This document shows positions 6,198 to 44,300 of a stretch of DNA of 64,000 nt, one piece after another. Numbering within the stretch: the stretch's first letter is position 1; each line of letters starts with the position of its first letter. The position numbers and the translations under genes were made by a program. Source of the DNA: Octopus vulgaris (taxonomy: Eukaryota); the NCBI GenBank assembly GCA_951406725.2, contig OX597819.1, forward strand, positions 87,110,001 through 87,174,000, written 5' to 3'. The notes under the pieces are model-generated. The model was not told the origin of the DNA, ran no database searches, and worked only from the letters and a program-made list of their open reading frames with translations.

Positions 6198-9075
6198 TGA
6201 TGCACAGGGCATGGAGCGACAGAGGCCTATTTGAATTAAGTGAACAATATCTGTGTGACCATGTTAGAGCCATCAGAAAGAATGCATGGTTATCTCCTCT
6301 TGAACTAGAAAGCATTAAGAGACGGGTGCTTAGGGATAGTAAAACCAGCGGTGAACGGGAAGGATAAGGGAGAGAATGCAGATAGTGAAACTATGGTAGT
6401 GGAGTTAAAGAAAGAAAACGAGCATGAGGCTAAGATTATTGATCAGGAAAGTGATAAGAGAACCGAGGAACAAATATCCATTTCAAATGAAATCGATGAT
6501 ATTTGGACCTCTGGTGAACAGAGCTTTCATACGGGGTTTTAAAAAGTAGACAGAGGAAAACTCAATGAGTGAGTCAAGAAGATAGATGATATCACTGGTG
6601 ATATCAGGACTGACAACATCACAGACACCAAGAATCTGATAAATGCAATTTCGATCTTTATAGCTCGGAAGTTAGGTTTGAAAGTCAAAGGTAAATGGCA
6701 ATAGTACTTGAAGGAGTCATGGTGGAAATGGAGAATAACGCAGTCTATTTATGAGACAAGAAATCATATTAATATTCTGGAACGGCAAAAGAGAAATGAA
6801 GTTCAGCGATAGAAATATGTTGAGCTAGAGAGGAAGTATATGGTGAAGAGAAAGGGAATCAGTATTGTGATTGAGGAATTAAAACAGAGGTTGAAAGCTA
6901 AAGCACATACACTAAAGAGATATGAACAATACATTGAGCAGTACAGATTAAACAAACTTTTCGAACAAAATCAGAAACGAGTCTATCAGTAACTGGATGG
7001 GAAAGAAAAAGGTGAAAAAGCCCTGCCGGATGCTGAAGAAAGTAAAAGATTCTGATCAAACATATGGTCTCAGGAGAAACAACACGAAATTGAAGCAGAA
7101 TGGTTAAAGAGAAGGGTGGAGAGTATCAGCAGGAGGAATTGATAATAACCGAGGGGATGGTTAGAGATCAGTGCAGGAAAATTCCTAACTGGAAAGCGCC
7201 TGGCCCAGATGGGGTTCAGGGATTTTGGCTTTAAAATTTCACAGCTTGCACAGAAGTATTGCGAGTCAGCTGGACGAAATACTGAATAGTGATATTCAAG
7301 TCCCGGCCTGGATGACAAAAGAAGAACGGTAGTATGCCAGAAGGACCCAAGTAAAGGGAATGCGGTTGGAAATTTCCAACCAATATCTTGTTTGCCACTG
7401 ATGTGGAAACTGATAACGGCCATCATATCAAGCAGCATCTATAAGTACCTACATGAGAACGATTTACTACCAGTGGAGCAAAAAGGGTGTAAACGTACGA
7501 GCAGAGGAACGAAGATTAATCGATAAGACTATCCTGGCTGATTGCAAGAAGAGACACAAAAATTAGCCAGTGGCATGACTAGACTACAGGAAAGCATATA
7601 ACATGGTCCCACATTCCTGGATTATTGAATGCCTTAAACTCCTTAAGGTCTCACGCCAAGTTCTGAAGCTAATACAAAACTCAATGACAACGTGGCGAAC
7701 TGAACTCACAGCATGGGGAGATAAACTGGGAGAGGTAAATATCATAAGAGAAATCTGTCAACGGGACAGTCTCCTATTTGTTGCTTGTGTACTGCCACTA
7801 ATGAGCGTTTTAAGAAAGATGCGTGTGGGGTACATGCTAGGTAGGGTGAAAGTAAACAACCTTTGTTTTAGGGATGACCTAAAGCTATTCGCTAAGACTG
7901 ACAAAGACATTGAGAGTTTGAGAGTTTGCAGATGATTAGCAAAGATATTGGTATGGAATTCGGGATCGAGAAATGTGGTGTAATGATTCTCAAAAGAGGG
8001 AAAATCAGTAAAAGGCAAGGGATCAAGCTGGGAAGTGATGAAACTATAAAGGAAGTCAAAGAGAAAGGATGTAAGTACCTGGGTGTCATTGAAAGAGATA
8101 AGATGAATGAACACAAGATGAAAGAAATGTATTTGAAAGAAGAGTATTTGAGGAGAACTCGGCCTGTGCTCCAATCGAAGCTAAATGGCCGTTATAAGAT
8201 TAGAGCATTTAACACATAGGCTGTTACTTTGATGAGATATAGAGCAGGTATAGTATCTCAGAAGAAGTAAAAATTACAAGAGATAGACCGGAGAAAACGT
8301 AAATTAATGACAATGAACTACGCCCCAAGAATGATGTCAAGATTGTACGTAAAGAGAATGGAAGGAGAACGGGGATGGGATTTGTGTGTTGTGAAGGTTG
8401 TGTAAGGGAAGAGGAGAATGGCCTGGCTTGGTATGTCAAGGGGAGTAAAGGATAAATGATTGAAGCGGTGGAAATGCAGGGTACCTTAAGAGTGAACAAA
8501 GTCGCAGATCCAATACAGTTTAAGACAGGCCAGAGAGAGCAGATGAGGTAAAGTTGGCAGGACAAGAAAATGCATAGTCAGTTCTTGGAGAATAAAGATG
8601 AGATTGATTAGAATAGAATTTGGCAATAGCAGCAGAAAGGAGATTCGAAGGGGCCCACGGAGGAATTAGAGTGAAGCGCTCACCCATAAAGATGAAAAAG
8701 AAGTAAAGATAATAGATGTTGCAATATCAGGCGATTCGAGGGTGAAATGTAAGGAAACAGAAGAGATGGAGAAATACGAGCCACTGCAGGGCGAGATTGG
8801 AAACTTTTGCGGCATGAGAAAAATAATGGTGATACCGATGGTAATTGGATCATTAGGAGCAGTTTTCAAGGAATTTGAAAAACATAAGAAAATTGGAACT
8901 GCTGTCATGCTCGCGGTGATTGAGAAGACAGCATTGTTGGGTACAGCTCACATTCTAAGGAGAGTATTGACTCTTTGAGTCACAGGAGAATGCACTACTT
9001 GAAACCTTTGGTGATTTGTTGTTGCCTGCTTTCAAGTAAAGAATAACCGGTAATAAAGAACTATCAGAGAGGCTT
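6198..9075 (+). mobile_element. Decayed R4/Dong-type RLE LINE
   Basis: Interrupted RT motifs (AYNMVPHSW, FRDDLKLF, GMEFGIEKC) and RLE C-terminus (IPMVIGSLG); many stops. Confidence 0.85.
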
Positions 9076-9172
9076 TCATGATAATGATAACAACATCAAC
9101 AACATCAACAACAACAACAATAGCAACAACAACAATAACAATGATAATAATAATAACAACAACAACAACAAC

Positions 9173-9217
<45 letters not shown>

Positions 9218-9221
<4 letters not shown>

Positions 9222-11495
9222 TTCACTGCAGTAATATCACAAAAATTGAACAAGCACCTGGACGAAAACAACCTGTTTCCAGAAAAGCAGCAAGACTGCC
9301 GCAAAGGCTCATATGACTGTAAAGATCAACTAATGATCAATAAAGCCATAACTGAAGACAGCCGCAGAAAGAAGAAAGGCCTCAGTATGGCCTGGATCGA
9401 CTGCAGAAAGGCGTTTGATAGCATCCCCCACACATGGATCCTCGAAACACTAGCCATTAACAAAGTAGCACCAACAATTATAAAGTACATAGGACACTCT
9501 ATGAATAAATGGCAGACAGTGCTACAGCTCCAAACAAAAGAGGGACTCGTGAAAACCAAAGCCATCCCCATTAGAAGAAGAATATTCCAGGGAGACACGC
9601 TCTCTCCACTCCTTTTCTGCTTGACACTGTCACCTCTACCTGATATGCTAAATAGAACTGGATGCGGATATAAATGTTACGGCAAAACGATCAGCCACCT
9701 TTTATATATGGATGACCTAAAATTATACGCTACAAATGACAAACAGCTGGAAACACTATTAAAGACAGTTCATGGATTCACCAAAGAAATAGATGTGGAA
9801 TCTGGATTAGAAAAATGCACCAAAGTAACCATGAAAAGAGGAAAACTAGTTAAGAGTAGCAACATCACACTAGATAAAGCCAATGAAATAAGTGAATTAG
9901 ACCAAAGCCAAACTTACAAATATTTAGGAATCCATGAACTAGATAAGACACAACACACACAAATGAAAGAGAAAATAAAGAAAGAATACTATAGACGAGT
10001 TAGGTCAATACTAAAAGCAGAGCTCAATGCTAAAAACAAGATAATAGGTATTAACACTTTAGCTGTCCCAGTTATAAGTTCCATCTAAAATATCCTTAAC
10101 TAGACACTAAATGAACTAACCAAAATAGTTAGGAAAACAAGAAAAATAATAACAGGATCTAGGATGCATCACCCAAAATCTGACATAGAAAGGCTATATA
10201 TACAACGTATATATAGTAGAGGCCTTATAAAGCTGGAAAACTACTATAAAATAACCACCATAGGACTGCAAAAATACCTACTTCAGAAACAAGGAAAACT
10301 GATACAAATAGCGGCAAAACATGAGCAAAACAAAAAATTGTTCTCAGTATTTAAGGAAGCTGACAAATACAAACAAGAAATCATACCACCTAACAAATAT
10401 GAAGTGGAAGAAGAAGAAGAAGAAGAAGAAGAAGAAGAAGAAGAAGAAGAAGAAGAAGAAGAAGAAGAAGAAGAAGGAGGAGGAGGAGGAGGAGGAGGAG
10501 GAGAAGAAGAAGAAGAAGAAGAAGAAGAAGAAGAAGAAGAAGAAGAAGAAGAAGAAAACACAACAAAAGCTCTAAAGCAAATGAAATCAAAACTAAAACT
10601 AGAACAGCAACGAACCATGATAAAACGATGGTAAGAAAAGCCCCTTCATGGCAAGTACTGGACTAAACTAAATGCAAAAGAAATAGACAAAGAAAAATCC
10701 CAGCAATGGTTGAGAAGCTCAGGACTCAAAGCAGAGACAGAGGGATTTTTAATTGCAGCACAAGACCAAAGCCTCCCCACCAGAAATTACCAAAAACATG
10801 TAATGAAAAGAAATATAACAAGTAACTGCAGAATATGTGGAGATGGACAAGAAACAATAAATCATATTATCTCTGGCTGCCCAGTCCTGGCTAAGAAGGA
10901 ATATATTCACAGATACGACAGAGTTGGAACCTACATACACTGGAAGCTATGCCAACATTATGGAATAACAACAGAAAAAAGATGGTATAGACACACACCA
11001 GAAAAGGTCACAGAAAACGAGAAAGCAACCATACTCTGGGATATGCCGATACACACAGATAGAGAAATTAAGGCCAACAGACCAGATATAGTTGTCAGAG
11101 ATCATGAAGAAAAAAAATGCTTTCTAATTGATGTATCAATACCAGCAGATGACAATATGTCTCTAAAAGAAATGGAAAAACGTTCAAAATACAAAGACCT
11201 GGAAATAGAGGTTACTAGAATGTGAAATCTAAAAACAGAAACAATTCCTATCATAGTAGGTGCATTAGGCATGATAAAAAATATTTAGACAAATACATAA
11301 CAAAAACACTAGGACTTACAAACACATATAACATACAGAAAATTGCACTACTAGGTACTGCACACATCCTACGCAGAAAACTTTCAATACAGTAACCATC
11401 AGAGCATCACAACAAATCACAGCACATACCTAAGGCACAAAGAGCTGCGCTCGGTAGGGAAGTGAAAGCACGTTATAAAAATAAAACTACTGAAT
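9218..11495 (+). mobile_element. 5'-truncated R4/Dong-type RLE LINE
   Basis: RT (IFQGDTLSP, YMDDLKLY), CCHC (CRICG...HIISGC) and RPDIV RLE motif; (AAT)n on both sides. Confidence 0.93.
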
Positions 11496-11512
11496 GATAA
11501 TAATAATAATAA

Positions 11513-12164
11513 AATGAATGCAAATTTCGCCACGACAGGGTAGGACAGTATTTACATGGGAAGATATGCAATCACTACAAAATCAGCATTCCTGCTTCCT
11601 GGTATGAACATTACCCCGAACCAGTTGTTGAAGGTAAAAATGTCACCATCATCTGGGATTTTCCAGTTAACACTGATGGAACGATCCAGGCTAATCGACC
11701 AGAAATAACTGTTAAAGGCAGGGAAGAAGACACTTAGACTAATAGAAGTGTTCCCTCTGATAAAAATATATCTGTAAAGGAATTCGACAAATTAAGTAAA
11801 TCCTAGGACCTGGAAATTGAAATACAATTGATGTGGCATCTTAAAGTGAAAACTGTTCCTGTTATTGTGGGTGCCCTAGGTATGATATAAAAGGGATGTC
11901 AGGAACATCTAGATAACATATCAGGAGAACCATGTCTCAGAGAAATAAAAAAAATTGTGCTGACAAGTAATCCCACATCCTTAGAAAAAAAAACCTATTC
12001 CATTTAAATGTCTGTGTTGTATTATATGAAAATATTTCGCTACTGTCCCTGCCACTTCCCTTCTCCAAGCCTCATTCAAACTGTAACATCTCTTATACTT
12101 CTCTCGTCCAGGACGTTTGGTGCGACTCGGCAAATGATTGTAACAAACATGTATATTTAAAGTA
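11513..12164 (+). mobile_element. R4/Dong-type RLE LINE 3' fragment
   Basis: RHDRVGQYLHWKIC...IWDFPV...ANRP; followed by a long (AAT)n. Confidence 0.85.
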
Positions 12165-12179
12165 AATAATAATAATAAC

Positions 12180-12246
<67 letters not shown>

Positions 12247-12300
12247 GTGATAATGATAACAACAACAACAACAAAAACAACAACAGCAACAACAACAACA

Positions 12301-12430
12301 TTATTTACATTTGACGGATATTTGTCCTCATCTTGTTTGTTGTTAACACAACGTTTCGGCTGATATACCCAGGTGTCTTGGGGGAGTTTCGAACCTGGAT
12401 TCTCATTCCTAAGGTATTTTTCGATGTTGT
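12301..12430 (-). mobile_element. Penelope-type pLTR fragment (hammerhead core deleted)
   Basis: Reverse complement of about 16163-16300 but lacking the CTGATGA/stem II segment. Confidence 0.7.
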
Positions 12431-12449
12431 TGTTATTATTATTATTATT

Positions 12450-15400
12450 ACTTTTTTTTTTCTTCTTTCAAATTTTCTTCCATTTCTTGCCGAGTGTCTT
12501 CCCGACTCCTAGGGCAAAGAAACTCATAGTGTATATTGGTAGGCCATTAAACCAAACTCAGTAGTTCGTTCATTTTTTTTTTTTTTTTTTTTTTTTTAAG
12601 TTAAATTAAAATACATGAGCAGCAACAGTTCTCACATCGACAATGCTCTTCTCAATACGTGTGATGTACCAGTTAAGACAATCTTTTGCACTTCTTGCAG
12701 GGATGGTAAGCCAGGGATCATTCTCATATAATTTTCGGTTCCCTTCTTGATCATTCCTAGTGCTCCTACGATCACTGGTATTGTAACCGCCTTGAGATGC
12801 CACATTTTCTCAATTTCAATGAGTAGGTCTTTATATTTTCTGAGCTTGTCAAACTCTTTCGCTGAGATATTATGATCACAGGGGATGCTCATATCGATCA
12901 ATAAGCAAACTTTATTGTTTTGGTCTTTAACAACAATATCTGGTTTATTGGCCTTGATGGTTCGGTCTGTATGTACTGGAAAGTCCCACAGAATGGTTAC
13001 ATTTTCTCCTTCAGTTACAGCCTCAGGGTGGTGATTATACCACTTGTCGGCAGTTTTGATATTGTAATGCCGACTTATTAGCCAGTGGAGATATTGGCCA
13101 ATTCTGTCATGTCTTAATTTATACTCCACTGGTGCTAAGACTTTACATCCAGAGATTAGGTGGTCCACTGTTTCAATCATGTCGTTGCAGAATCGGCATT
13201 TTGGGTCTGCTCAATTTTTCATCACATTGGCCTGGTAGTTCCGGGTTAATAGGCTTTGGTCTTGAGCAGCCAGGATGAAACCTTCGCTCTCTGCTTTTAG
13301 CCCTGAGCTCCGCAGCCACTGATGGGTTTGCTTCTGGTCAACATCAGCTTGTTTGCTGCGGGTCACATATTTGCCGTGCAGAGGTTTCTCCTCCCACCTA
13401 TCAGCCAATTGCTCGTGCGCTTTTTTCATTGCCATCATTTTCACCTTCTTTGCAACAATAGTTGCCGTACTTCCCTCGGGTTGTTCAGTTTGGGTATCCT
13501 GCACGAGATCAATAGCAAATTTTTTGCTTTCCTTGATGATAGAATGAAGCTTCTTTCGTCTCTCGTGATTTTCCACGAGCTTTAGCATCCAGTCATTCGA
13601 TATTTCGAGATATTTGGCCAGTCCAATTGTGGTTGTTTTGTAAGCTAGTTCAAATTGGATCAGGCCTCGACCTCCTTGGGCTCTGGGAAGGTAAAGGCGA
13701 TCTACGTCTGCCTTTGGGTGGTACATCCTATTACAACTCAGCAGCTTGCGTATTTTTCTATCTATATTCTTTACTTCACTCATATTCCAGTTCAACACAT
13801 TGTAGCTATAAGTAACAACTGGAACTGCTAAGGAATTTATAGCTAACACCTTGTTACGTGCATTTAGTTCAGATTTCAGGACTGCACGAACTCTCCTATA
13901 ACATTCCTTCCTGATTTTCTCTTTCATGCTTGCATGCTGAATACCAGAGCCTTCATTTATCCCTAAATATTTGTATGTCTGTTCTTGCTCAAGCTCTCTT
14001 ATGACTGTGTCAACATCTAACACGACTGAATTTGTGGTCTTCACTTTCCCTTTCTGGAAAGTGGCCTTGGCACACTTCTCAAGTCCAAACTCCATCCCGA
14101 TGTCATCGCTGAATGCTTTCACGGTGCGCAATAGGCCTTCAAGTTCATTATTGTCTTTACCATAAAGTTTTAAGTCATCCATATAAAATAGATGGCTTAT
14201 TTTTTTATTGGCAATTTTATACCCATACCCTGTTCTGTTTAATTCACTTGTAAGGGGTATTAGGGCTATGCAGAATATTAAAGGTGAGAGTGAGTCACCT
14301 TGAAAAATTCCAGTTGATGTTTATATTTTCTGAGGCAAGTACTCCATTAGAGTGGTATAATTGGAGATTCGTATTCCACAACGACATATTGTGCTTCAGG
14401 AAGTTTGAAATCACAGGGGAAATTTTAAAGATGTCCAGCGCTCTCAAGATCCATGGATGCGGTATACTGTCGAAGGCCTTTTTATAGTCAATCCATGCGG
14501 TGCTGAGATTTCTGCGCTTGTTGTGACAGTTCTCAAGGATCATACGATTGATTAGCAGTTGATCTTTGCATCCGTAAGAGCCTCGGCGGCACCCTTTTTG
14601 TTCAATGGGGAAAATATCGTTCTTCTCCATGAATGCATATGTTTTCTCCGCCAGGATAGATGTTAGGATTTTATACGTGGTGGATAGACAGGTTATAGGC
14701 CGATAGTTTTTTGGAAGGTTGGTTTCGTTATTCTTTGGGAGTAGGTAAGTAATGCCACTTGCTAACCATTCAGGTGTTTTCTTTGGGTCTCTCAAAATTC
14801 CATTGAGCAGCTGAACTAGCTTACCGTGTGCGCACGGGAGCGATGCGAGCCAGAAATTCGGCACCCTATCTTTACCGGGGGATTTCCAATTATGGGCCTT
14901 CGTGAGTGCCTTTCTTAGGTCTGCTATTGTGATGTCTTCCCATGCTTGTTGTTGTAAATTTTGGTAGGATCCTTCAGTTTGTATAATCCAGTCTGCATTT
15001 ATGTTGTACGTCTTCTTGTCACTCCAAATCCTTTCCCAAAAGTTTTGAACTTCTTCCATGGGAGGGGGGTCTTTAACGGTTACTTTCTCCTTCCCTATTT
15101 CTCTGTAGAATTTTTTGGCATTGGATGTGAACAGCTTATTTTGCTTGTAAAACTTGTTTCTCTTCTCAAATCTTCGTATTCTTTGGGCTTTTGCTTGGAC
15201 TTTTTGTTTCAGCGTTTCTTTTATTGATATCAGTTCTTCTCTTGGTGAGGATCCAAATTTTCTCTTCATCTTTCTTCTTGTTCTGGATCTTACATCATTT
15301 CCACATATTAGTTCATTTAATATTGATATTTCCCCTCTCATAAATTCAATCTCTTTTTCAATTTTACTTCTCCAGGTTTGATTTCTTCCCAGGTTTTGTT

Positions 15401-15844
15401 TTCTTTGTTTTTTCGGGGGCATACAGCTGGTTTCAATTGCCCTAGCAGAAGCGTAAATAATTTCATTTAACTCAGTAAAATCAGGTTTTAATTCTCGTAA
15501 TATTTCATTTGTTACATAGTTGCCAATTTGGATTTGTTTTTTATTTTGGTTTGTATTTGAGAGTTTATGAAGCGGTTCTCTATCATTCATACTTGTATGT
15601 CTTACAACTTCAAGCGTATTCAGGATTTTCTGCCTCATTTCTGCCATAGACTCTCTGTGTTCTTCAGCAAATGCGAGATCTTCAGTTACTGTTGTTTTTT
15701 CGTTTTCCTGGCTATCTTTAACAGGTACAATAGAATTTCTTGTATCTTCAGGCCTTTGCGTACTTTGGTCAGATGGCAGTCTTTCAATTAAGCCTCGTGG
15801 CGGGCTATACTGTTCATCTGATTCTTCATTTCCTTTGTGTCTTA

Positions 15845-15845
<1 letters not shown>
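12450..15845 (-). mobile_element. Near-intact R4/Dong-type RLE LINE
   Basis: Three ORF pieces (14295-15647, 13211-14182, 12632-13180) join into one RT-CCHC-RLE frame with one frameshift near 14310 and one in-frame TGA at 13211; (TTA)n flanks. Confidence 0.94.
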
Positions 15846-15919
<74 letters not shown>

Positions 15920-18659: not shown

Positions 18660-20197
18660 TTATAAATGACTTTCTTCGTTATAGTCCACGCTGCTGTTAT
18701 ATGATAATGCTATTTTTTTAGACATTGCCATGGAAGGAATGCTGTTCTTATGTTTTCCTGGTGAGATGACAGTAGCAAGATTTCTCTTTCTTAAAGTTTC
18801 ATGAAGTGTTATTGCACCATGAGTGGACATTTTTCGTATTCGTTCAGAGACCTTTCGGGTAAATGCAGATTTCTGGGTCGATTTTACACTTTTTGTAAGG
18901 GAATATCTCATTTTTCTAACTACCTCTCTTTGGTCAATATTATTAAGTTCAAGGGGCGTATGAGGATCCGCTTGTTCAGAAATAATGTTAGTGCAAGAAA
19001 TGATGTGAAAAAATGTCTCTAACCTATGTAGAATCATTCCAAAAAACTGAAGCGCAAAAATAAAGGCAAAAAGTGAAAGAAACAGGAAAGAAAATGGTTC
19101 AATTTTAACATCGTCCTCTTCTCTTGGGATAGTAAACATAAAAGGCTTCCGGTATTGAAACATAAAATTAATAACCATCCACATTAGGTTGAGTAAAGTC
19201 ATAGCATGACAACAACTTGTACGAAAATACAGCAAATTCTCCTTTCCTCTTTCTTCTTCTTCTTTAGTGAACTCAAGAGGATAAAGATATTTGGTGATGA
19301 ATTGCTTCCAAAACTTACTTTCTGTCTTTGAAAGCTTTGCTCTCAATCCATTTCCGAGACACGAATGTTTCATCCAAAAATGTGGTGAACCTTTCTTCTC
19401 TGGTGTTGTTCCTTCCTCTTCGAAGAATCTGACTTTTGATTTGTTCATACTTCTATAACTTCTCGATTTTGATTTCGTCAGTGACATTGTTTCCATTGAC
19501 TCCATTGTATCCATTGTCTCCATTGTTCCCATTGTCTCCACTGAATCCGTTGTGCTGGCTTCATTCAAGGTTCTATCTGAAAGAGCTTTTATGTTTTCAT
19601 TCATTTCCCGTAAAAGTGTTAACATTGCGTTATCTTCTTCTTTCTTATCCTTATAGAACAGATTCTTAACCATCGACATCAATTCTGAAATTCCAAGCAT
19701 TTTGCTAAGTGTTGAGGATACAGAAGTTTCGTTAGCATTCGGTTTAATTTCTTCGGTTGTAGCTAACAGTTTTTTTTCTCTCGTACCCCAGGATACAATA
19801 TGCATATTACTCATTGAGTAAATAACTAGAATTAAATATCCCAGTGGTATACAGATAAAGTATACGATTCCACAAATTAAGCAGTAGAGTTCCTGTAAAT
19901 GTAATAAACCAGACAATGTAACAAGAATGGTCATACTCAGTATGACGATTACTCCTGGATTGAAAACTGATGTTTCTGCAGCTTGGATAATGACTCCAAC
20001 CATTACAGCTAACATAATAAAAGTGTAAATAGCACTTTGTAAAGAAGCTAAAACCAGCTGTGTTTCAGTTTTCAAATAAAAGCATGCTAGACCAAACAAA
20101 ATATTCGGTATGAGTACCAGTAAATAGGACAATGGTATTCCTATTTGAAACACAGAATCAAGTGACACTGCAATCATCATCATAACGGTCCCAGGTC
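18660..20197 (-). CDS. Chitin synthase terminal exon (TM helices, SWGTRE, coiled-coil region, C-terminal TMs)
   Basis: tttttttttag acceptor, starts GPGTV, contains SWGTRE and YLYP, ends at TAA 18660-18662. Confidence 0.96.
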
Positions 20198-20603
20198 CTA
20201 AAAAAAAATGAGATGATTTAGTTGCATACTTGTATAACACACACACACATACATAAAGGTAGAAATATATGTCACTAAAGTCACTAAGGGCACTAATCAG
20301 CAGCAGCATTATTAGAAATAAGAGTCAAAACAACTAAAAAAAAAATCAGGCACTATCTTCATGGCTAACAAGGGAGGCAAGCTCTCTATGGCATAATATA
20401 TAGCCACAACATCCATGATTTCGCATTTGATTCACACGCATCTTAATGCTCAACGGTGGCTCTCACCTAGGTTTAAACTCAGCTCATCTTGTCAGCTTAT
20501 AAGATTTCCGTTAAAATCATACACTAATTTCATAGACGGTAAAAGGGAAAATTAAAAATAATATTTATGGCAAATTTTCATATATATATATATATATATA
20601 TAC

Positions 20604-22534: not shown

Positions 22535-24530
22535 CTGTAAAAAAAGATAAAAAATGTTTTGCCGTTTAGCTAGTAAATATATTGATCAATAGCTAATTAA
22601 CATTAGTTGTGGATCAATATCGTAGCAAGAAAGAACAAAAAATAATTGTTATAATTACAATTAAAAGAAACTAATTCAAACTATATAAGACACTAAACTG
22701 ATTCAAAAAAAGATACGCGGTTACCAGATTACTAGAATTAACAACCAAATCTCTCCCAAATCACACACTACCACCTTTAAAAAAATGGAACGATTCGTTG
22801 ACTAATGAAATTCTAGATATACAAAATGAAAATATGAATGGTTATGGTTGGGATACCTTTCATCATAAGTTTAATCAACTGCCTTGTGACTAAATAACAA
22901 AAACAAACAACAAATCATGAGCAACAAGGTGAAATTTGACCTCTTTGAGATAACAACCAAATTACTCTATAGTCTTAGAAATAAAACAGCACTTTAAATA
23001 ATATATTACTATGAATACAACATCTTTAAAAAATCGAAGATAATTTCTATCAAAGCTACAGTTAAACTAAATAGCATTAAAAACATTACTTTTCTTTAAT
23101 TCATGAAACAGTGTGAATATAACTTGCTTGGTTAAGAAGTTCGCTTGGCAAAAACGTTTTGAATTCAGTCTTATTACATAGCATGTTGGGGAAGTATTTA
23201 CTACTATAACTTCGGTTTAATCAACACCTTATGAGTGAATTTGGTATACAGAAACTGTGTGGAGGTCCCTCGTATATGTGTATGTGTGTGTGTTAATGCA
23301 ATATAAATAATTGCCGGCTTTATAAGATGAAATTTATAACAGAGATGTAATTTTCTCTATATGTAATTTTTATAGTCGTTTATGCTAATTTTCTTGAAAT
23401 TCTGCCAAAGGGTTTTTGGATTTACCTGTCATGCATGAGGATTTATTTGTGATCTGTATTCTACTTACATTTACTGGTGTTTAATTGTTGACCATATGTA
23501 ACCAAATTAAAATTATTTTAATAATTGGTGTTTTATTGATATCTGCCAGGAATTTTTAATTCCTTTTTTTTCTTCTAAAAAAATATATATATACGTGTAG
23601 AAAGAGAGTTAGCTCCAGGCAATCTATAGTAAATATAATCAAGACTAGCTTAAGGTGACCCGCGCGTAGAGCGGGTAAGAGTGTGGTTGTTACTTTCTGT
23701 TGCTTCCTTTCTGTTTTTTATCACCACATTCTCCCTCTTTGTTTCTCTCTCCTTTCTCTCTCACTTTCCCACTCTCTTACTCTTCCTTTCTCACGGAGTC
23801 TCCCTCGCTTTCTCTTACTCTCTATCTTTCTCTATCTCTCTCTCTCTTCCATTTATAAACAACAAAAGATCTTGAGTAAGTTGAGAAATAAAATATTTTG
23901 AAAGATCAATCATAAATATCAGGCAGTGACAACGGAAAGGTCTGCTTCAAGGCAGACAGCAAAATACTAACATTTAAAAGGGACAGACGAACTTGCGAGC
24001 TGAATAAAAATAAAAAAAATATTGGAAACCAAAGTTTGAAGGGATAGAATCTGAGGATAGTAGAGTCACCATGGCTGGCATTTCTTAACGACGGACAGCA
24101 ACGTCTGGCGTAAAATTTTGAACTTGATGTAAAAGAAAATTCCTAAACACCAAGTTTTGAAGTGATTCTTTCTTACGACAGTAGACTCACCATTGCAAGC
24201 ATTCAAAACTTCTTCATCATGGACGGCAACACATTGACGATTTAAAGGCTGGCGCAAATTTTTAGCTTGATGTAACAGAGAATTCCTAAACACCCGCTCC
24301 TGTAAATTTTAATCCCCTTCCAGCCCCATTTAGACCCCTTTTCACATTTTGGTTAATATAACCAGATTTCGTTCGAGTCTACCCGGGCCACATTTTATAA
24401 GATATAAGGAATTTTGTCCTAGAGGTCACGCCTTTCATTTGAGGAAAAAAATAGTTGGCATGCAAACTCAGCAGCACTTTTAACATAGGTGTGCATATTT
24501 TCAGCTCAACCGATCTCATAATGCACACAT

Positions 24531-24654: not shown

Positions 24655-24696
<42 letters not shown>

Positions 24697-24915
24697 CAAT
24701 ATAGGGTGGCAAAAAAATTTTGTAGAATTCTTTTGCCACCAGCGGCCTAGTAGGAAAAAATTAAATAGTCATAAACCATTTTTACGTTCAACATCACAAT
24801 CAAGGAACGGCCATAATAGGCCATTCACCTACTAGAAATAACAGCCAAAAGCTTTAACCGCAAAATAACATTAATACCGTAAACCAGGAGAAAATTGAAA
24901 AACTTTTACCCTGTA

Positions 24916-25022
24916 ATTTCTTAGACGATGCACCGTTTCATCTACCGTTTAATGGTAAACTAACCTGATTAAATTAAATCAAGCCAATCCACCATAGGCC
25001 CTTAGACTCATCAGTAAGAAAT
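24916..25022 (-). ncRNA. Type I hammerhead ribozyme (retrozyme copy, sense to the chitin synthase pre-mRNA)
   Basis: Exact reverse complement of 25820-25926. Confidence 0.9.
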
Positions 25023-25819
25023 AGCCAAATCGGGACAGATATTTTTCACGAGGCATTCCTCTTGCTGCCTCGGCAGTATCTGACCTAAAATTTTCAAATC
25101 GTCGCACTCGCGCCAAATTTATCGGCAGCAAATGAACCACCGATTCCGTTACGGAACTAACCAGAAAATTCATAATTAATCAATATAGGGTGGCAAAAAA
25201 ATTTTGTAGAATTCTTTTGCCACCAGCGGCCTAGTAGGAAAAATTAAATAGTCATAAACCATTTTTACGTTCAACATCACAATCAAGGAACGGCCATAAT
25301 GAGGCCATTCACCTACTAGAAATAACAGCCAAAAGCTTTAACCGCAAAATAACATTAATACCGTAAACCAGGAGAAAATTGAAAAACTTTTACCCTGTAA
25401 TTTCTTAGACGATGCACCGTTTCATCTACCGTTTAATGGTAAACTAACCTGAAAAGTTTTTCAATTTTCTCCTGGTTTACGGTATTAATGTTATTTTGCG
25501 GTTAAAGCTTTTGGCTGTTATTTCTAGTAGGTGAATGGCCTATTATGGCCGTTCCTTGATTGTGATGTTGAACGTAAAAATGGTTTATGACTATTTAATT
25601 TTTTTCCTACTAGGCCGCTGGTGGCAAAGAATTCTACAAAATTTTTTGCCACCCTATATTGATTAATTATGAATTTTCTGGTTAGTTCCGTAACGGAATC
25701 GGTGGTTCATTTGCTGCCGATAAATTTGGCGCGAGTGCGACGATTTGAAAATTTTAGGTCAGATACTGCCGAGGCAGCAAGAGGAATGCCTCGTGAAAAA
25801 TATCTGTCCCGATTTGGCT

Positions 25820-25926
25820 ATTTCTTACTGATGAGTCTAAGGGCCTATGGTGGATTGGCTTGATTTAATTTAATCAGGTTAGTTTACCATTAAACGGTAG
25901 ATGAAACGGTGCATCGTCTAAGAAAT
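25820..25926 (+). ncRNA. Type I hammerhead ribozyme (retrozyme copy)
   Basis: Stem I atttctta/taagaaat, CTGATGA at 25828-25834, stem II gtcta/tagat, GAAA at 25903, stem III acgg-tgca-tcgt, GUC cleavage after 25918. Confidence 0.9.
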
Positions 25927-26302
25927 TACAGGGTAAAAGTTTTCAATTTTCTCCTGGTTTACGGTATTAATGTTATTTTGCGGTTAAAGCTTTTGGCTGT
26001 TATTTCTAGTAGGTGAATGGCCTATTATGGCCGTTCCTTGATTGTGATGTTGAATGTAAAAATGGTTTATGACTATTTAATTTTTTCCTACTAGGCCGCT
26101 GGTGGCAAAAGAATTCTACAAAATTTTTTTGCCACCCTATATTGATTAATTATGAATTTTCTGGTTAGTTCCGTAACGGAATCGGTGGTTCATTTGCTGC
26201 CGATAAATTTGGCGCGAGTGCGACGATTTGAAAATTTTAGGTCAGATACTGCCGAGGCAGCAAGAGGAATGCCTCGTGAAAAATATCTGTCCCGATTTGG
26301 CT

Positions 26303-26409
26303 ATTTCTTACTGATGAGTCTAAGGGCCTATGGTGGATTGGCTTGATTTAATTTAATCAGGTTAGTTTACCATTAAACGGTAGATGAAACGGTGCATCGT
26401 CTAAGAAAT
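26303..26409 (+). ncRNA. Type I hammerhead ribozyme (retrozyme copy)
   Basis: Identical to 25820-25926; cleavage predicted after C26401. Confidence 0.9.
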
Positions 26410-26530
26410 TACAGGGTAAAAGTTTTCAATTTTCTCCTGGTTTACGGTATTAATGTTATTTTGCGGTTAAAGCTTTTGGCTGTTATTTCTAGTAGGTGAA
26501 TGGCCTATTATGGCCGTTCCTTGATTGTGA

Positions 26531-26562
<32 letters not shown>

Positions 26563-27347
26563 AATACAGATATATACACTTTGTATATATACATTATATA
26601 TACATATTTATATATAGAACACACACACACACACACATATATAAATTAACCCAATAAATATCTGATTCATAATATTTGTTCTCATGATTGTGTGGTTGTT
26701 GTGGCGATAATAAAACTCTCTTTGAACGTAGACAGACATACGGAGAGAGAGAGAGGGGAGGTGGTAGGGGAATGAGGGACAGCGCTGGCGAAGGCAGTGA
26801 GAGAAAGATAGTAGTATCTGTCAAACGTCGTTATAGAGAGAATGTGAGGGAAGGGAGGAAACAGAGAGAGACGGAGGAAGACATGCAGATAAGAGAATGA
26901 GAGGAGACTTGTCAAAGTGTGCGTTTTTTGCCCTAGTAACGACACCTTTAAAGATAGCTATTTCTAACCTAGCCCACTCGCATCCTCACCTCATTTTACA
27001 TGTCACTGAAAATTTTGGAGTCAATCCGACGGGTCTAGTGGCCTTTAACCCGTTCCAATGCCAAAACCAGACAAACAAACTTTTCGCATTTCAGATTTAT
27101 AGATATTGATATATTTGGCCTAAGGTGTAGCCTCTGCGGTATACACCACGCTTGGATATTGACCACTTCCGAGTTTCCGCTCGCTATGAAACATATGTAG
27201 CTCGGATCTTATCGGCTCCATTCCTTAATTCTTGTGTGTGTGTACACATACACACACACACACACATATATATATATAAAATTAGTGTACATTCATGGGG
27301 CATGTGCTGTCTATTTGTTCCACAATTATATATTAATTTTTAGCGCC

Positions 27348-36274: not shown

Positions 36275-37909
36275 CAGTTGCGGCCAAAATGTTCAGAACG
36301 GCATTGTTTTCGTCAGAAAAGTAAGTATAAGTTTTTATTAAAGTTGTTTTATATTCTATAATTTTCACAGACAATAAATACCATATTATTTGTTATTGTC
36401 TGAGATTTTAGTGTAATTTGAGAGGATAATACAAAAGTTATGGATGATTTAGTGATTTACTGCAAAACTCATGGCGGCCAAAATGATCAGAATGGTTGCT
36501 TTTACTTCATGTTTTATTATATTTAACCAGCGAACTCTAATATTTTGAATTTGTTTACGTGACGGTTCATTTACGAAACACGCCGTAAGAATATCTGCAG
36601 TGTATTTTGTTAATATAATGCCACTTACTCCATTACCAATTCGTCAGCAGATTATTAAGCTTCGAAAGAAGGATAATTTAAGTATTGGGTCTATTGCAAA
36701 GATTGTTAACAAGTCAAAAAGTGTTGTTCACGGTATTCTTAAGGTCTACGATGATTGTGGTTCGTGTGAAGCAAGAACGTCTACAGGTAGGCCAAGAAAA
36801 ACGACCAAGAGAGAAGATCGTGCTATGGTAAGGTTAGTTAAAAAGGTTAGATTTAAAACTGCTGCTGCTGTTTCTCGGGAAATGAGCATTGCACTGAAGA
36901 AAACTTTATCTCGAAAAACTGTGTCTCGTCGTTTAGTTGAACATGACCTACAAGCAAGAGCACCTGCAGTGAAACCACTGATCAGCTCCAAGAATAAAAA
37001 GTGTCGTCTTACCTTTGCAACCGAACATGTGTTGTGGTCTCAAGAAAAATGGCCAACGGTGCAGTCTATGTTATTTGGCTCAGATAGAGGCAATAAGGTA
37101 CGTTCGTCGAAAAGCAGGTGAAAAATTGTCGCCTAAATGCCTTAAGACTAATGTTAAATTCGGTGGAGGAAGTGTCATGGTTTGGGGGATGATAACTGGA
37201 GATGGTGTGGGCCCTTTGGTGCGATTACATGGAAAGGTAAATGCAGGAGTTTATAAACAACTTGTAAAAGATCATGTCTTGCCTGTGCTGAGAAATTCAA
37301 CTAAGCGACCACCCATATTCATGCAGGACAATGCCCCATGTCACAAGGCTAAGGCGGTCATGAACTTCCTCAAGGCTGAAAAGGTTATTATTATGGATTG
37401 GCTTGCTCAAAGCCCAGATCTCAATCCTATTGAAAACATGTGCTGGAGTCGGAAAGACAACATCCAGGTCTCCTGGAGAACGTTCGAAAGCCAGAAATCC
37501 TAAAACAACTGAGCAATTATGGAATGCCCTTCCGGAAGAATGGAATAAGATCACCCAGCAAGAAATTGAAAATTTAATTTCCTCATGCAGTCGAAGATGT
37601 CAAAGTTTGATTGAAGCTGAAGGGCTTCACACTAAATATGAAATAATTCCAGCATTCTCTGTCATTTTTTATTATTTTGTTATTTTTTCAACCATTCTGA
37701 TCATTTTGGCCACCATGGGTTTTGCAGTAAATCATTATATCATCCATAACTTTTGTATTATCCACTCAAATTATATCAAAATCTCAGACAATACCAATTA
37801 CTATTGTATTTATTGTCTGTGAAAATTATAGAATATAAAACAACTTTGATAAAAACTTATACCTACTTTTCTGTCGAAAACAATGCCGTTCTGAACATTT
37901 TGGCCGCAA

Positions 37910-38889: not shown

Positions 38890-40040
38890 CAGTTCTATAT
38901 TTAAAAAACGAGGAATTATGTACATTTGACGGATATTTATCCTCATCTTGGGGAAATTTCGAACCTGGGTTCTCATTCCTAAGGTATTTTTCGATGTTAT
39001 TATTATTATTATGATTATTATTCAGGTCACTACCTGGAATCGAACTCGGAATCTTGTGGTTAGTAGCTCGCGCTCTTAACCACTACGCCATATGGGCAAT
39101 TATGGAGTGAATTTTAGGGCTTATAAATCTAATATTCTCCTATCCTTCCTTAATATCGATTCCCATATGCTGTTCATAAATGCACTCGGTCTGCTTAGAA
39201 GGTTGTTGTGTCCTAGCATATGTGCTGCTTCTTTTAGTTTTCATATTTTCCAGTGGTGTTCTCTGTCTATTATTTTAACTTCATCCCACAGGGGGAGGTG
39301 GTCTTCATTTTTTCATACATGATCAGCTAACCCGATTTATCAATATCTCTCCATGTCACAGCTTTGCGATGTTCCTCTAACCTTATTTTGAGGAGGCGGC
39401 ATGTTTCGCCTTTGTATAACCTACCACAGCTGCATGGGATGGAGTATACGCAGTTCTTGGTCATATTCTCTTCTACTGGCCTTTTTACTCGGAGATATTT
39501 GCGAAGTGTTGTATTACTTTTGAATACTGTCCTAATGTCATATGGCCGCATATCTTTTGTATCTTTTCGGAGAGGCCTTTCACATAAGGTAGACAGACAG
39601 TAGACAGTTTATCGGTTACATCCTCTTTTTTCTTCATAATTGGACTGGAGAGTATGCTTTTAGGGTAGTTGTTGCTTAATAGATTGCTACTGAGTTCGAT
39701 CATTTCTTCGTGTTGGGTATCACGATCGCTACTTATATTCATTGCTCGACGTTTTAGGTACTGAGCAATCCCTCTCTTTACACTATGGATGGTGGGAGTT
39801 GAAGTTGAGGTATCGTCCAGTGAAGGTCGGCTTGCAGTATACGGATGTCCTGAATCCATACTTGGTGCGTGTTATTAATACATCCAGGAATGCTAGCTGA
39901 GTGTCTTCTTCTTTTTCCATTGTGAACTGTATGGATGGCTTTATTGAGTTCACATGATCTAACATCACTTGGACATCTTCCTGGTGGGGCCACAGTATGA
40001 AGGTGTCATCAACATATAGTTGATGTAGGATGTTACAGCC
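38890..40040 (-). mobile_element. 5'-truncated Penelope-like retroelement (RT C-terminus, GIY-YIG and pLTR)
   Basis: YVDDTF, LAFLDVLI, VYCKPTFTGRYLNFNSHHP and CVYSIPCSCGRLYKGET motifs. Confidence 0.9.
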
Positions 40041-41384: not shown

Positions 41385-44300
41385 TGTAAATCTGACCTTG
41401 GTAAATTGAGTAAACTTATTTTAGATAAATATATTAATAAATTAAATAAACTTAATTACTTAAAATTATGGTTTAGTAATGATAATACTTTGAATTGGTT
41501 TAATAATATTAAAGATAAAAATCGATATAAATTTATTCAAATAGATATAGATAATTACTATTCATTCTTCTATTAATGAAATTGTGTTTAATAAGGCCCT
41601 TATTTTTGCAATGAATAAAGTGGGAATGACATTTGAAGAAGTTAATGTAATTAAAATGGCTAGGAAATCGTTTATTAAATATAAAAATAAATTATGGGAT
41701 AGGAAAGATACTAGGGACTTTTTTGATATACCTATGGGAGCACCTGATTCTGGACAAGCTACGGATTTAGTAGGTATTTATATTTTATCTGAACTTCAAT
41801 TAGAAAATTTAAAAATAGAGGGTGGTTTATATAGGGATGACCTTCTACTAATTACTAAGAATTGCACTAATAGGAACCTAGAAGTATATAAGAAAAAACT
41901 TTATAGTTTCTTTAAAAGATATGGTTTAAGTATTACTATATATAATGAGAATTTTAATGTTAATTATTTAGATGTTAATTTTAATCTAATTACAGGTAAA
42001 ACACAACCATATTATAAACTTAATGAGAACCTTAGATATATAAATGTTAATTGTAATCACCCACCATCAATTAAAAAATCGTTGATTAATAATATAAGTA
42101 AACTATATCATTACTTTCTTATGATTTAGAGATTTTTAATAAACATGTTCCTTATTACAATGAGGCCCTTAGAGAGGCAGGTTATAATAGTAATATTAAA
42201 AATAATAAAAATAATATAAAGTAATAAAAATAATATAAATAAAAATAAAGAATAAAAATAAAAATTAAATTAATAACTTTAATAATTCTTTAAATGTTAA
42301 TTATAAATTTAAATCTAATAATAATAATAATAATATGATAAAGAAATATAATAATAACAATAATAATGACAGTTTTAATAATAAGAAGAAGGAAAATAAG
42401 AATAAAATTTGGTTAATAGTTCCTTATGGTGCTCAAGTTAAAACGAACACTATTAAAGAGATTTTAGATATTATTGAACTATTTATTCGAGATAATCGTA
42501 AATATAAAAACATTTTCTCTAGTGATAATTTTGGAGTAGGTTATTCCACCACTAATAGTGTAGGTAACACTATTTCTTCTTTTAACAAATTTAAACTGAA
42601 TAATTTTTATAAAAATAAATTATATAATAATACCAATAATAAATATAAGACACTAATTACATGTAGAGATAAAACTAAATGTAAATTAAATAATAAATGT
42701 GATATTAACGATGTAGTGTATAAATGTATAGTTACATTACATGATGAGAATAATAAGAATAATAATAACTCAAACGCGATATATATAGGGTCCACTTCCT
42801 CTAAAATAAAATTAAGAATCGCACAACATATGAATTCATTTAAAAATAAAAACTTAATTAACTCCACTGGACTTAGCAAGTACATTTGGGGACTTAAATC
42901 CCAAAATATTAATTATAATTTATCTTGGGAAATATTTAGTAAAACTAAATCATATAGTATAGGAGCGAATTTTTGTTATTTATGTTCTAGTGAGTTTAAG
43001 GAAATTTTATTTTATAAGCATGATAATTTACTGAATACCTGTGATGAGCGCAAAATAAAATGCAGACACAAGTTGCTTTACTTATATAATAAATTTCTTG
43101 ATAAATAATGAATATTTCTTAGTCTTAATTAGCTCCCTATTTGTTGTTTTATGTAATAGTATTCTAAATATAGCAGGTGATTTGTAGTACTTATTATATT
43201 AGTTTATTTTAGTTATTTAGGTTCTGTTTTTAATTATAGTTAGATTATATATAGTTGTTCATTTTATTACTAAATATGTTATTACTAAATATATTTTTAA
43301 TAAATATTTAATGGTTTATTGAATATAGAGTCTGGTAAGTTACAATTTTATTTATTTTATATATTTTGTTATATTTCTGTTATAACTTCGTTAAATTATA
43401 ATTTTTGTTCTATTAATCTATCTGTATGTAATCTCTTTATATTTGAAATAGATTTATTTAGTTGTTTATTTAATCTATTTTATTTAATATAGAAGTATAG
43501 ATTAGTAGATTAATTATTTAGATTTAACTTAATATTTACCTCTATTTTGTATTGTAGTATGATTATAGACATTTATATATGTATTTATTATTTGATATAT
43601 ATGGTTGTGTGTGTATGTGTATATGTGTATATGATGATGTGTGTGTATATATATGTATATGTATATACATTTATTTATGTGTATGTGTGTGGGTGTGTAT
43701 ATATAGGTGTAAGTGTATATACTGAGTATTGTATGTACATGTATGTATGAGTGTGCATATGTGTTTGTGCATGTATGTGTATATATGTGTGTATATATGT
43801 ATATGTATGTATGTGTGTATGTATGTGTATATGTGTATGTATATGTATATGTATGTATATATATATATATGTATATATATATGTATATATATATGTATAT
43901 GTATGTATATTTTTTATATATTTATGTATACGTATGTATAGTTATACTACAAATTCTGATAAGTATCTATAGATTTGGTTATGATCACTAATTTTAACTT
44001 ATAATTATAAGGGCATGGGAAAGAATTTATAGTATGTTGAGGGGTTACTATATAAATAATTTTTTATATATTTATTAACCTTATAAGATTTTTAGAATAT
44101 ATTTAATAATTAGTGGTTTTTAATCATTTAAATCATTTAATGTATTTTGTATTAAGTTTCATTTATCATAGTTATTTTATTAATAAATATTATAGTATAG
44201 AGAGATTTTATTCTTTATTTGTGACTTCATTCTATTTACAATGATAAACAAATAATTTTCCCATTCACAATCATTAATAAAACGTAGGTTCCTCACGCGT

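Follow-up and report, generated by a model that had tools for sequence, protein, structure and literature searches.

The window, by which we mean the whole stretch of 64,000 nucleotides of the Octopus vulgaris genome analysed here, contains between positions 24693 and 26531 a unit of 483-484 nt that is arranged as two head-to-head arms inside a (TA)n tract. The original prediction had described this region as a tandem repeat of near-identical 483-484 bp units, and the units are indeed 483-484 nt long, with a mutual identity of 99-100%; consecutive units do follow one another within the arms, but the array as a whole is inverted about 25451/25452, where an arm of 1.6 units meets one of 2.2 units. 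Units are numbered here from 25919, the base after a predicted ribozyme cut, as position 1. The inverted arm (24693..25451, minus strand, about 1.6 units) has its 5' end at unit position 439 and its 3' end at site B (position 230), while the direct arm (25452..26531, plus strand, about 2.2 units) runs from unit position 17 to site A (position 130), with an overlap of 1 nt at the junction (25451..25452). Both arms point outward into the (TA)n target tract, whose left half lies at 24659..24694 and whose right half is read from the sequence at 26530..26560; such TA repeats stand beside nearly all sampled 3' ends at sites A and B of the family. The segment from site A to site B, a "tail" of about 100 nt (24693..24793, minus strand), is confined to this side of the insertion. 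The original prediction mentions neither the arrangement as inverted arms nor the fixed A and B ends nor the (TA)n tract as target.

Three full type I hammerheads and one half copy are present, all where they had been placed. The full copies lie at 24916..25022 on the minus strand (predicted cut after 24924) and at 25820..25926 and 26303..26409 on the plus strand (predicted cuts after 25918 and 26401), the first of these plus-strand copies being the one on which the 58-nt stem II extension is marked. The half copy (25400..25451, minus strand) retains GAAA, stem III, GUC and the 3' strand of stem I and is without CUGAUGA, its 5' half having been lost to 5' truncation. In the plus-strand arm, two units in succession (at 25820 and 26303) carry an entire type I hammerhead. 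Measured from cut to cut, the unit (25919..26401, plus strand) would be released as a monomer or a circle; it has 38% GC and contains no ORF of at least 120 aa. Its strong self-complementarity, noted at the outset, is borne out by folding against shuffled sequences, with z scores of -5.8 for the linear form (100 shuffles) and -6.3 for the circular form (60 shuffles), and the unit is thus non-coding, below 45% GC and highly self-paired, the properties by which retrozymes are recognised. One hairpin (26015..26036) ends 12 nt before the internal site A (26048), and a second, of 15 bp (26101..26136), ends 12-17 nt before the internal site B (26148-26153). The length of 483 nt, once thought to be at the long end for such elements, is not unusual, because families of 51-972 bp have been reported (bioRxiv 10.64898/2026.07.22.740005).

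Elsewhere in the window, translations judged by eye suggest two LINE-type reverse transcriptase (RT) remnants and a Tc1-like transposase remnant (9057-15914 and 36549-37822), one of the LINE-type remnants having long open frames on the minus strand at 12632-15914. An open frame of 554 aa (18660-20324, minus strand) has no match in Pfam or PDB and resembles, by eye, the latter half of a chitin synthase, which is rich in membrane segments. Short repeats at 23640-23700 and 26920-27100 resemble non-autonomous Helentron or DINE-type elements. Rfam matches to miRNAs and snoRNAs in the window were rejected as microsatellite noise.

The hammerhead ribozyme

Each full hammerhead in the window combines an 8-bp stem I, CUGAUGA, a 5-bp stem II, GAAA, a 4-bp stem III with a UGCA loop and a GUC site, every one of these parts being present as first described, and the core is that of a type I hammerhead, with CUGANGA, GAAA and NUH joined by stems I-III and stem I open. 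The insert in stem II had been taken for a branched structure of about 60 nt; in the predicted fold it is 58 nt long and unbranched, made up of a 7x7 internal loop and a 19-bp hairpin. A search with Rfam supported the class of the ribozyme only in part: the two plus-strand copies alone match Hammerhead_1, and they do so at 22 bits (E 0.12), under the gathering score of 34. The low score is probably caused by the long stem II insert. By prediction, the lowest-energy fold of the monomer (-34.2 kcal/mol) is favoured by about 4 kcal/mol over the catalytic one (-30.0), and the palindromic stem III would allow two copies to pair, with a predicted energy of -18.9 kcal/mol.

To describe the conservation of the ribozyme we compared one unit from each of 50 loci, with a divergence of up to 9.8%. 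C3, G5, A6, G8 and A9 are invariant, U4 is changed once, and all four bases occur at N7. One pair of stem II is swapped from A-U to G-C in 4 of the 50 loci, the loop of stem III is changed from UGCA to UAUA in 3 of the 50 with the palindrome kept, and the cleavage triplet is always GUC or GUA. The conservation of the 3' core is partly a matter of construction, because the 3' core served as the rule for cutting out the units, and therefore only the CUGANGA side provides an independent test of conservation. Among the common changes outside the hammerhead, all predicted pairs pooled, 15 keep the pairing, 11 break it and 1 is compensatory; the covariation support for the remainder of the fold is therefore weak.

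The pair 10.1-11.1 at the base of stem II is G-U or A-U rather than the usual G-C, and is G-U in the window. Across the 50 loci it is G-U in 34, A-U in 15 and U-U in 1, and never G-C. The G10.1-C11.1 pair has been noted as conserved (PMC4209133), and an axolotl retrozyme with a U-U mismatch at this place is described as retaining weak cleavage (PMC7229834). Of nine predicted Xenopus retrozymes, eight showed no cleavage in vitro and one cleaved, in a study that also suggested local growth of arrays (bioRxiv 10.64898/2026.07.22.740005).

A young and abundant family

The family was surveyed in the 2.80-Gb assembly, which comprises 227 contigs. A DNA search returned 631 candidates, and the 40 that were scored gave 222 matches on many chromosomes, the full-length ones 96-100% alike. 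An exact pattern for the intact hammerhead of this family matched 2,363 times, and a reversed-pattern control gave 0. Exact A ends (position 130) fused to (TA)n number 429 (reversed-pattern control 0), a count from an exact pattern that misses variant subfamilies. On the forward strand alone, 612 B ends close to position 235 run directly into (TA)n (control 0), the figure being given for that strand only as a variable gap inflates the reverse count. Arrays elsewhere in the genome hold up to 6-7 units, in copies that are 99-100% alike and dispersed over many chromosomes, and the spread of the family is very recent. Searches of the literature, with repeat libraries and supplements outside their scope, found no paper on this 483-nt family, and the words "hammerhead" and "retrozyme" are absent from the main text of a paper on O. 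vulgaris repeats (PMC13282606).

Two-armed insertions pair one A end with one B end

The anatomy of the insertions was read from a sample of 101 distinct copies, made up of the best DNA matches, the first matches of the A pattern on contig 1, and the matches of the B pattern on contig 1. Loci found with the B pattern that were already in the A-pattern sample were counted once; L011 and L013, as well as L018 and L021, were merged as duplicates before counting, L015, L103, L106, L108, L121 and L126 were dropped as duplicates, a self-match of 55 nt in L037 was excluded, as was the third match in L180, and L128-L157 were left out of the counts. Seventy-three of the 101 insertions have two arms head to head, that is, a partial tandem with an inverted 5'-truncated copy, 26 (about a quarter) have one arm, and 2 are complex.

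The 3' ends fall into two classes. Those at site A lie at positions 127-135, mostly at 130, and those at site B at positions 224-242, mostly at 230, 232 or 235, so that the tail between them measures about 100-105 nt; TA repeats follow 164 of 168 class A or B ends. In the two-armed insertions in which both ends could be classified, one end is always of class A and the other of class B (68/68, no AA and no BB), and this is true of 23/23 insertions that were not chosen by their end type as well as of 19/19 and 26/26 in the other two samples. Three of the remaining 5 two-armed insertions are cut by the edge of a stretch or by a gap, and 2 have abnormal ends (L099 and L110). The inner junction, on the other hand, differs in position in almost every copy, as it does with 5' truncation, and the arms are often joined with 0-5 nt of overlap or filler. 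In public runs of related DNA, loose ends with (AT)n stand exactly at A and at B, and one joint between opposite strands was also seen.

Of 24 complete one-armed copies, 21 are flanked by (TA)n on the 5' side too, and the tract is therefore older than the insertion; a (TA)n tract made by the RT itself was rejected, as one-armed copies carry (TA)n on both sides. Second arms as short as 7-30 nt were seen in L036, L163, L177 and L192, and some copies scored as one-armed may therefore be two-armed with a tiny partner. The A and B ends, the one-ended tail and the (TA)n target are together the signature of a Penelope-like element (PLE), from which we infer two internal start sites for reverse transcription.

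Clues to the RNA template

The 5' ends of the arms gather just after the predicted cut: 27 of 166 lie in positions 1-23, vs 7.9 expected (p 3e-8), and that of L002 is exactly position 1. Long arms have no significant pile-up (10/103 in positions 1-35, p 0.21). The gathering of ends could alternatively come from stalling of the RT at stem I or from AT-rich joining. In 22 of 67 insertions, vs 8.8 in shuffles, the starts of the two arms are no more than 25 nt apart. Among the short insertions this is so in 15 of 18 (6.9 in shuffles, with 0 of 20,000 reaching 15), and both ends lie near the cut in 11 of 18, while in long insertions the starts match in just 7 of 49. The simplest reading is that short copies come from a linear RNA with a 5' end, and arrays from an endless or long template.

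The sequences of the units were compared among 119 full units out of about 2,400, a sample in which nearest neighbours are under-represented. The 7 units of L160 have 0 differences across both arms, vs 6 to the nearest sampled locus, the 4 units of L043 have 0 differences among themselves, vs 4 to the nearest, and the array of L197 is uniform across both arms yet distinct from the nearest sampled locus. For these, the simplest reading is that a single RNA variant was copied into both arms in the course of one event. In 2 of 27 arrays (L030 and L046), however, units with and without a 6-bp indel are mixed, and the units of the L196 array are heterogeneous; a single monomer circle is therefore insufficient as an explanation. 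Possible alternatives are that the RT stalled at stem I, that synthesis folded back, or that unequal crossover came later.

One rival reading needs no circle and is compatible with mobilisation by a PLE, differing from ours in the template only: the PLE would insert monomers or short pieces from linear RNA, the arrays would grow by unequal crossover of DNA, and the second arm might arise by fold-back. We regard this as possible, though rather doubtful. Such a route has been proposed for vertebrate retrozymes (bioRxiv 10.64898/2026.07.22.740005), mixed arrays do exist, and fold-back also predicts the equal arm starts of 15/18 short insertions. It accounts less well for the long insertions, whose arm starts are unrelated (7/49 match) and in which the A arm can far exceed the B arm (3,095 vs 545 nt), and for the fact that copies 99-100% alike already carry up to six or seven units on many chromosomes.

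Part of the unit is present in 20 of the 22 listed public runs (share 0.19-0.44, five coded organisms), none of which is recorded as RNA. When contigs from four runs were placed on the permuted unit, all 29 bins were covered and some contigs bridged the cut site; in such contigs DNA, uncut precursor, circle and tandem look the same and RNA status is a guess, and we place no weight on them as regards expression. The substitutions in these runs give no ground for a claim of RNA editing, as A>G and T>C are matched by as many C>T and G>A.

Candidate helper elements

The search for an autonomous partner included a GIY-YIG family search, with 150 of 6,136 candidates scored, and covered four groups of PLEs: two Neptune-type, one Hydra-type and one old, broken family. 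None of these four groups, which are far from a complete sample, shares sequence with the unit in its pseudo-LTR (pLTR), and the 69 PLE-associated loci (324 kb) contain no match to the unit except copies of the family itself. Among the PLEs sampled the likeliest helper is the Hydra-type PLE, for which we see about an even chance. This element (L200-L213), assigned to the Hydra clade by the motifs given in PMC8557442 and without a tree, has an 841-aa ORF with RxxWK, DKT, CxCx5C, CxxC and CxH motifs, and its end region occurs in 4,824 exact copies in the genome. Like the 483-nt family, it has a (TA)n target and a hammerhead core with a long stem II. Its end spacing is the closest to that of the family among the PLEs sampled, with 140 nt from the cut to site A (vs 130) and a tail of about 90-99 nt (vs about 102-105), as read from a subfamily near the broken copy in the window rather than from the young 840-aa subfamily, and its two-armed loci have one A and one B end in 3/3 cases. 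The unit's apparent likeness in end motifs to the Hydra-type ends did not reach significance in a shuffle test (p 0.07 and 0.20). The broken Hydra-type copy in the window, with RT and GIY-YIG-like frames, lies at 41400-43110 (plus strand) and downstream; among the 17,973 genome-wide candidates for this type are young members of about 840 aa, and the tail of the type, close to 95 nt, exceeds the published 30-40 nt.

The first Neptune-type family (L081-L096) is young, with intact 781-aa ORFs (in Pfam, RVT_1 below and GIY-YIG above the cut-off) and a (TA)n target, and it has two ends, with one A and one B in 2/2 two-armed loci; unlike the 483-nt family, it has a tail of 38 nt and 74 nt from the cut to site A, and no sequence likeness. 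Ten of its 16 copies also carry an upstream, overlapping ORF of 300-480 aa, and a degenerate hammerhead-like motif was seen. The second Neptune-type group is represented by L198, with a 775-aa RT and GIY-YIG ORF. Both Neptune-type families were rejected as partners, as they share no sequence with the unit, and so was the old, broken family found with the window fragment 39488-39763. The match in L053 is a 55-nt fragment of the family, and that in L180, at 69%, looks like chance.

It is conceivable that the unit is the pLTR or the 5'-truncated end of an ORF-bearing PLE outside the sample, the copy in the window being debris, but we judge this improbable. In its favour, the build of the insertions is purely that of a PLE, the sample covers 101 of well over 1,000 insertions, and 31 Penelope-like families are reported as recently active in O. 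vulgaris (PMC13282606), against the four groups sampled here. In L110 (499-724) one arm departs from the unit at position 297 and enters the terminal codons of a Neptune-type endonuclease, which is present on the opposite flank as well; this single case is perhaps a rearrangement. Against this stands the finding that 82 of 166 arms exceed one whole unit and still stay within the unit, while tblastn with PLE proteins recovered only neighbouring, separate insertions, and the unit has no counterpart in the 69 loci described above. No RT and GIY-YIG ORF is continuous with the unit in any of the 101 sampled insertions, and the refuting case named in the original prediction, a unit that is just the pLTR of an ORF-bearing element, did not occur in this sample.

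Other two-armed hammerhead elements stand beside PLEs in this genome. A second, unrelated element with a long stem II (L059:90-574, the same place as L097) lies in the (TA)n that follows a Neptune-type PLE; its two arms make up an almost perfect palindrome, and its ends are placed 37 and 137 nt downstream of the cut, which gives a 100-nt tail. A third (L062:2825-3264, also L082) has a hammerhead core on one arm and lies in the (TA)n with which a Neptune-type copy ends. There seem to be several such hammerhead families in this genome.

Probable mobilisation in trans and a proposed mechanism

We consider it highly probable that the 483-nt units constitute a young, abundant, non-coding family of non-LTR retrozymes that is mobilised in trans through the PLE route. 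A non-LTR retrozyme served by a Penelope-like RT had been proposed from the window alone and is still the best reading, its PLE part now backed by the genome-wide pattern of insertions. More than 1,000 young copies bear the PLE signature, and the link between retrozyme and PLE therefore rests on mechanism. Earlier proposals of PLEs as mobilisers and of a circle as template drew on co-occurrence and on kinship in sequence (PMC7229834; bioRxiv 10.64898/2026.07.22.740005).

Inverted outer ends in TA, tandem arrays and the lack of an ORF might also suggest an element that moves as DNA, either a MITE with terminal inverted repeats and a TA target or a Helitron-like rolling-circle repeat, the hammerhead being incidental. 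However, there is a constant offset of 100 nt between the two ends, the place of the inner junction varies in nearly all copies as with 5' truncation, and 26 of 101 insertions are one-armed, all of which makes a DNA element very improbable. Large palindromes are a known artefact of long reads, but that the inverted arms are assembly artefacts from fold-back reads is scarcely credible given the unique and differing flanks on each side, the strict A and B pairing in 68 loci, and the opposite-strand joint and (AT)n ends at sites A and B in independent public runs.

For the retrozyme mobilised by a PLE, the following sequence of events may be proposed. Arrays would be transcribed, and the hammerhead, to judge from related families, would cut once per 483 nt to give linear monomers, perhaps more efficiently as a dimer formed through the palindromic stem III; the monomers might then be ligated into circles. 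An RT-endonuclease of a PLE, acting in trans, would cleave a (TA)n tract on both strands, the target being observed and the enzyme presumed. Within the RNA, one DNA end would prime at site A and its counterpart at site B, about 100 nt further downstream; while the fixed ends and their pairing are observed, internal priming is suggested by in vitro work (PMC11167929). Both cDNAs would then stop and be joined head to head, as the joints observed in the genome indicate. Short symmetric insertions would result from RNA whose 5' end lies close to the cut, and long uneven arrays from a template without a shared end, i.e. a circle or an uncut multimer.

More tentatively, and with some doubt, one may picture a single RT complex that uses site A on one target strand and site B on the other, linear RNA giving short palindromes and circles giving arrays by rolling-circle copying. 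If this is true, the family offers direct genomic evidence that circular RNAs made by ribozymes are templates of animal retrozymes, a Hydra-clade PLE with a 100-nt tail is the driver, and the hammerhead acts in vivo even though it is dispensable in vitro. The family is a natural record of how Penelope-type machinery copies RNA, through which the priming of both target strands and the role of the hammerhead in the PLE cycle in vivo can be tested, and its 483-nt RNA with defined start sites would be a compact substrate in vitro.

Comparison with known retrozymes and Penelope-like elements

The work that defines animal non-LTR retrozymes shows their circles and names PLEs as the likely helper (PMC7229834). 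The present family resembles those of coral, mussel and axolotl described there in its non-coding, low-GC and highly paired tandem unit, in the single type I hammerhead per unit with its palindromic loop III, in its thousands of copies and in its co-occurrence with PLEs. It differs in unit size (483 nt vs 170-400 nt), and the 58-nt extension of stem II and the G-U or A-U pair at 10.1-11.1 set it apart from known retrozymes. Expression and circles were shown for those retrozymes, whereas the 483-nt family is known here from genome sequence. Inverted arms, fixed ends and a target were not found in the main text of PMC7229834, from which the words "inverted" and "target site" are absent. In vertebrates, too, retrozymes with units of 51-972 bp have been linked to the pLTRs of PLEs (bioRxiv 10.64898/2026.07.22.740005).

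The other relatives are the endonuclease-bearing PLEs, whose inverted copy, 30-40-bp tail, often at one end only, and (TA)n targeting are described together with the Hydra clade in PMC8557442. For Poseidon of Anolis, both target strands are cut and extended, and two internal start sites bound the tail (PMC11167929). With these elements the family shares the partial tandem with an inverted 5'-truncated copy, the one-ended tail, the two internal start sites, the AT-rich or (TA)n target and a hammerhead near the end, and it differs from them in the lack of an ORF and in a tail of about 100-105 nt rather than 30-40. The start sites of Poseidon were used without a difference between strands in vitro, where cleavage by the hammerhead was dispensable as well (PMC11167929), while in our sample the pairing of A with B is absolute; and whereas no RNA ends were seen after the ribozyme cut in Anolis, the 5' ends of the 483-nt family gather there. 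Circles have been proposed as templates for copies longer than one unit (PMC4209133). The MRC1-like elements of Chlamys (PMC8557442) are comparable as non-autonomous PLEs with multicopy head-to-tail insertions, but they have 3' sequence in common with autonomous families and belong to a group without canonical hammerheads. The kind of element and the one-ended tail were thus already known; what is new is the strict pairing of A with B ends across a large number of sampled insertions, a tail roughly three times as long as those published, and genomic hints that linear RNA left by cleavage and templates without an end are both used.
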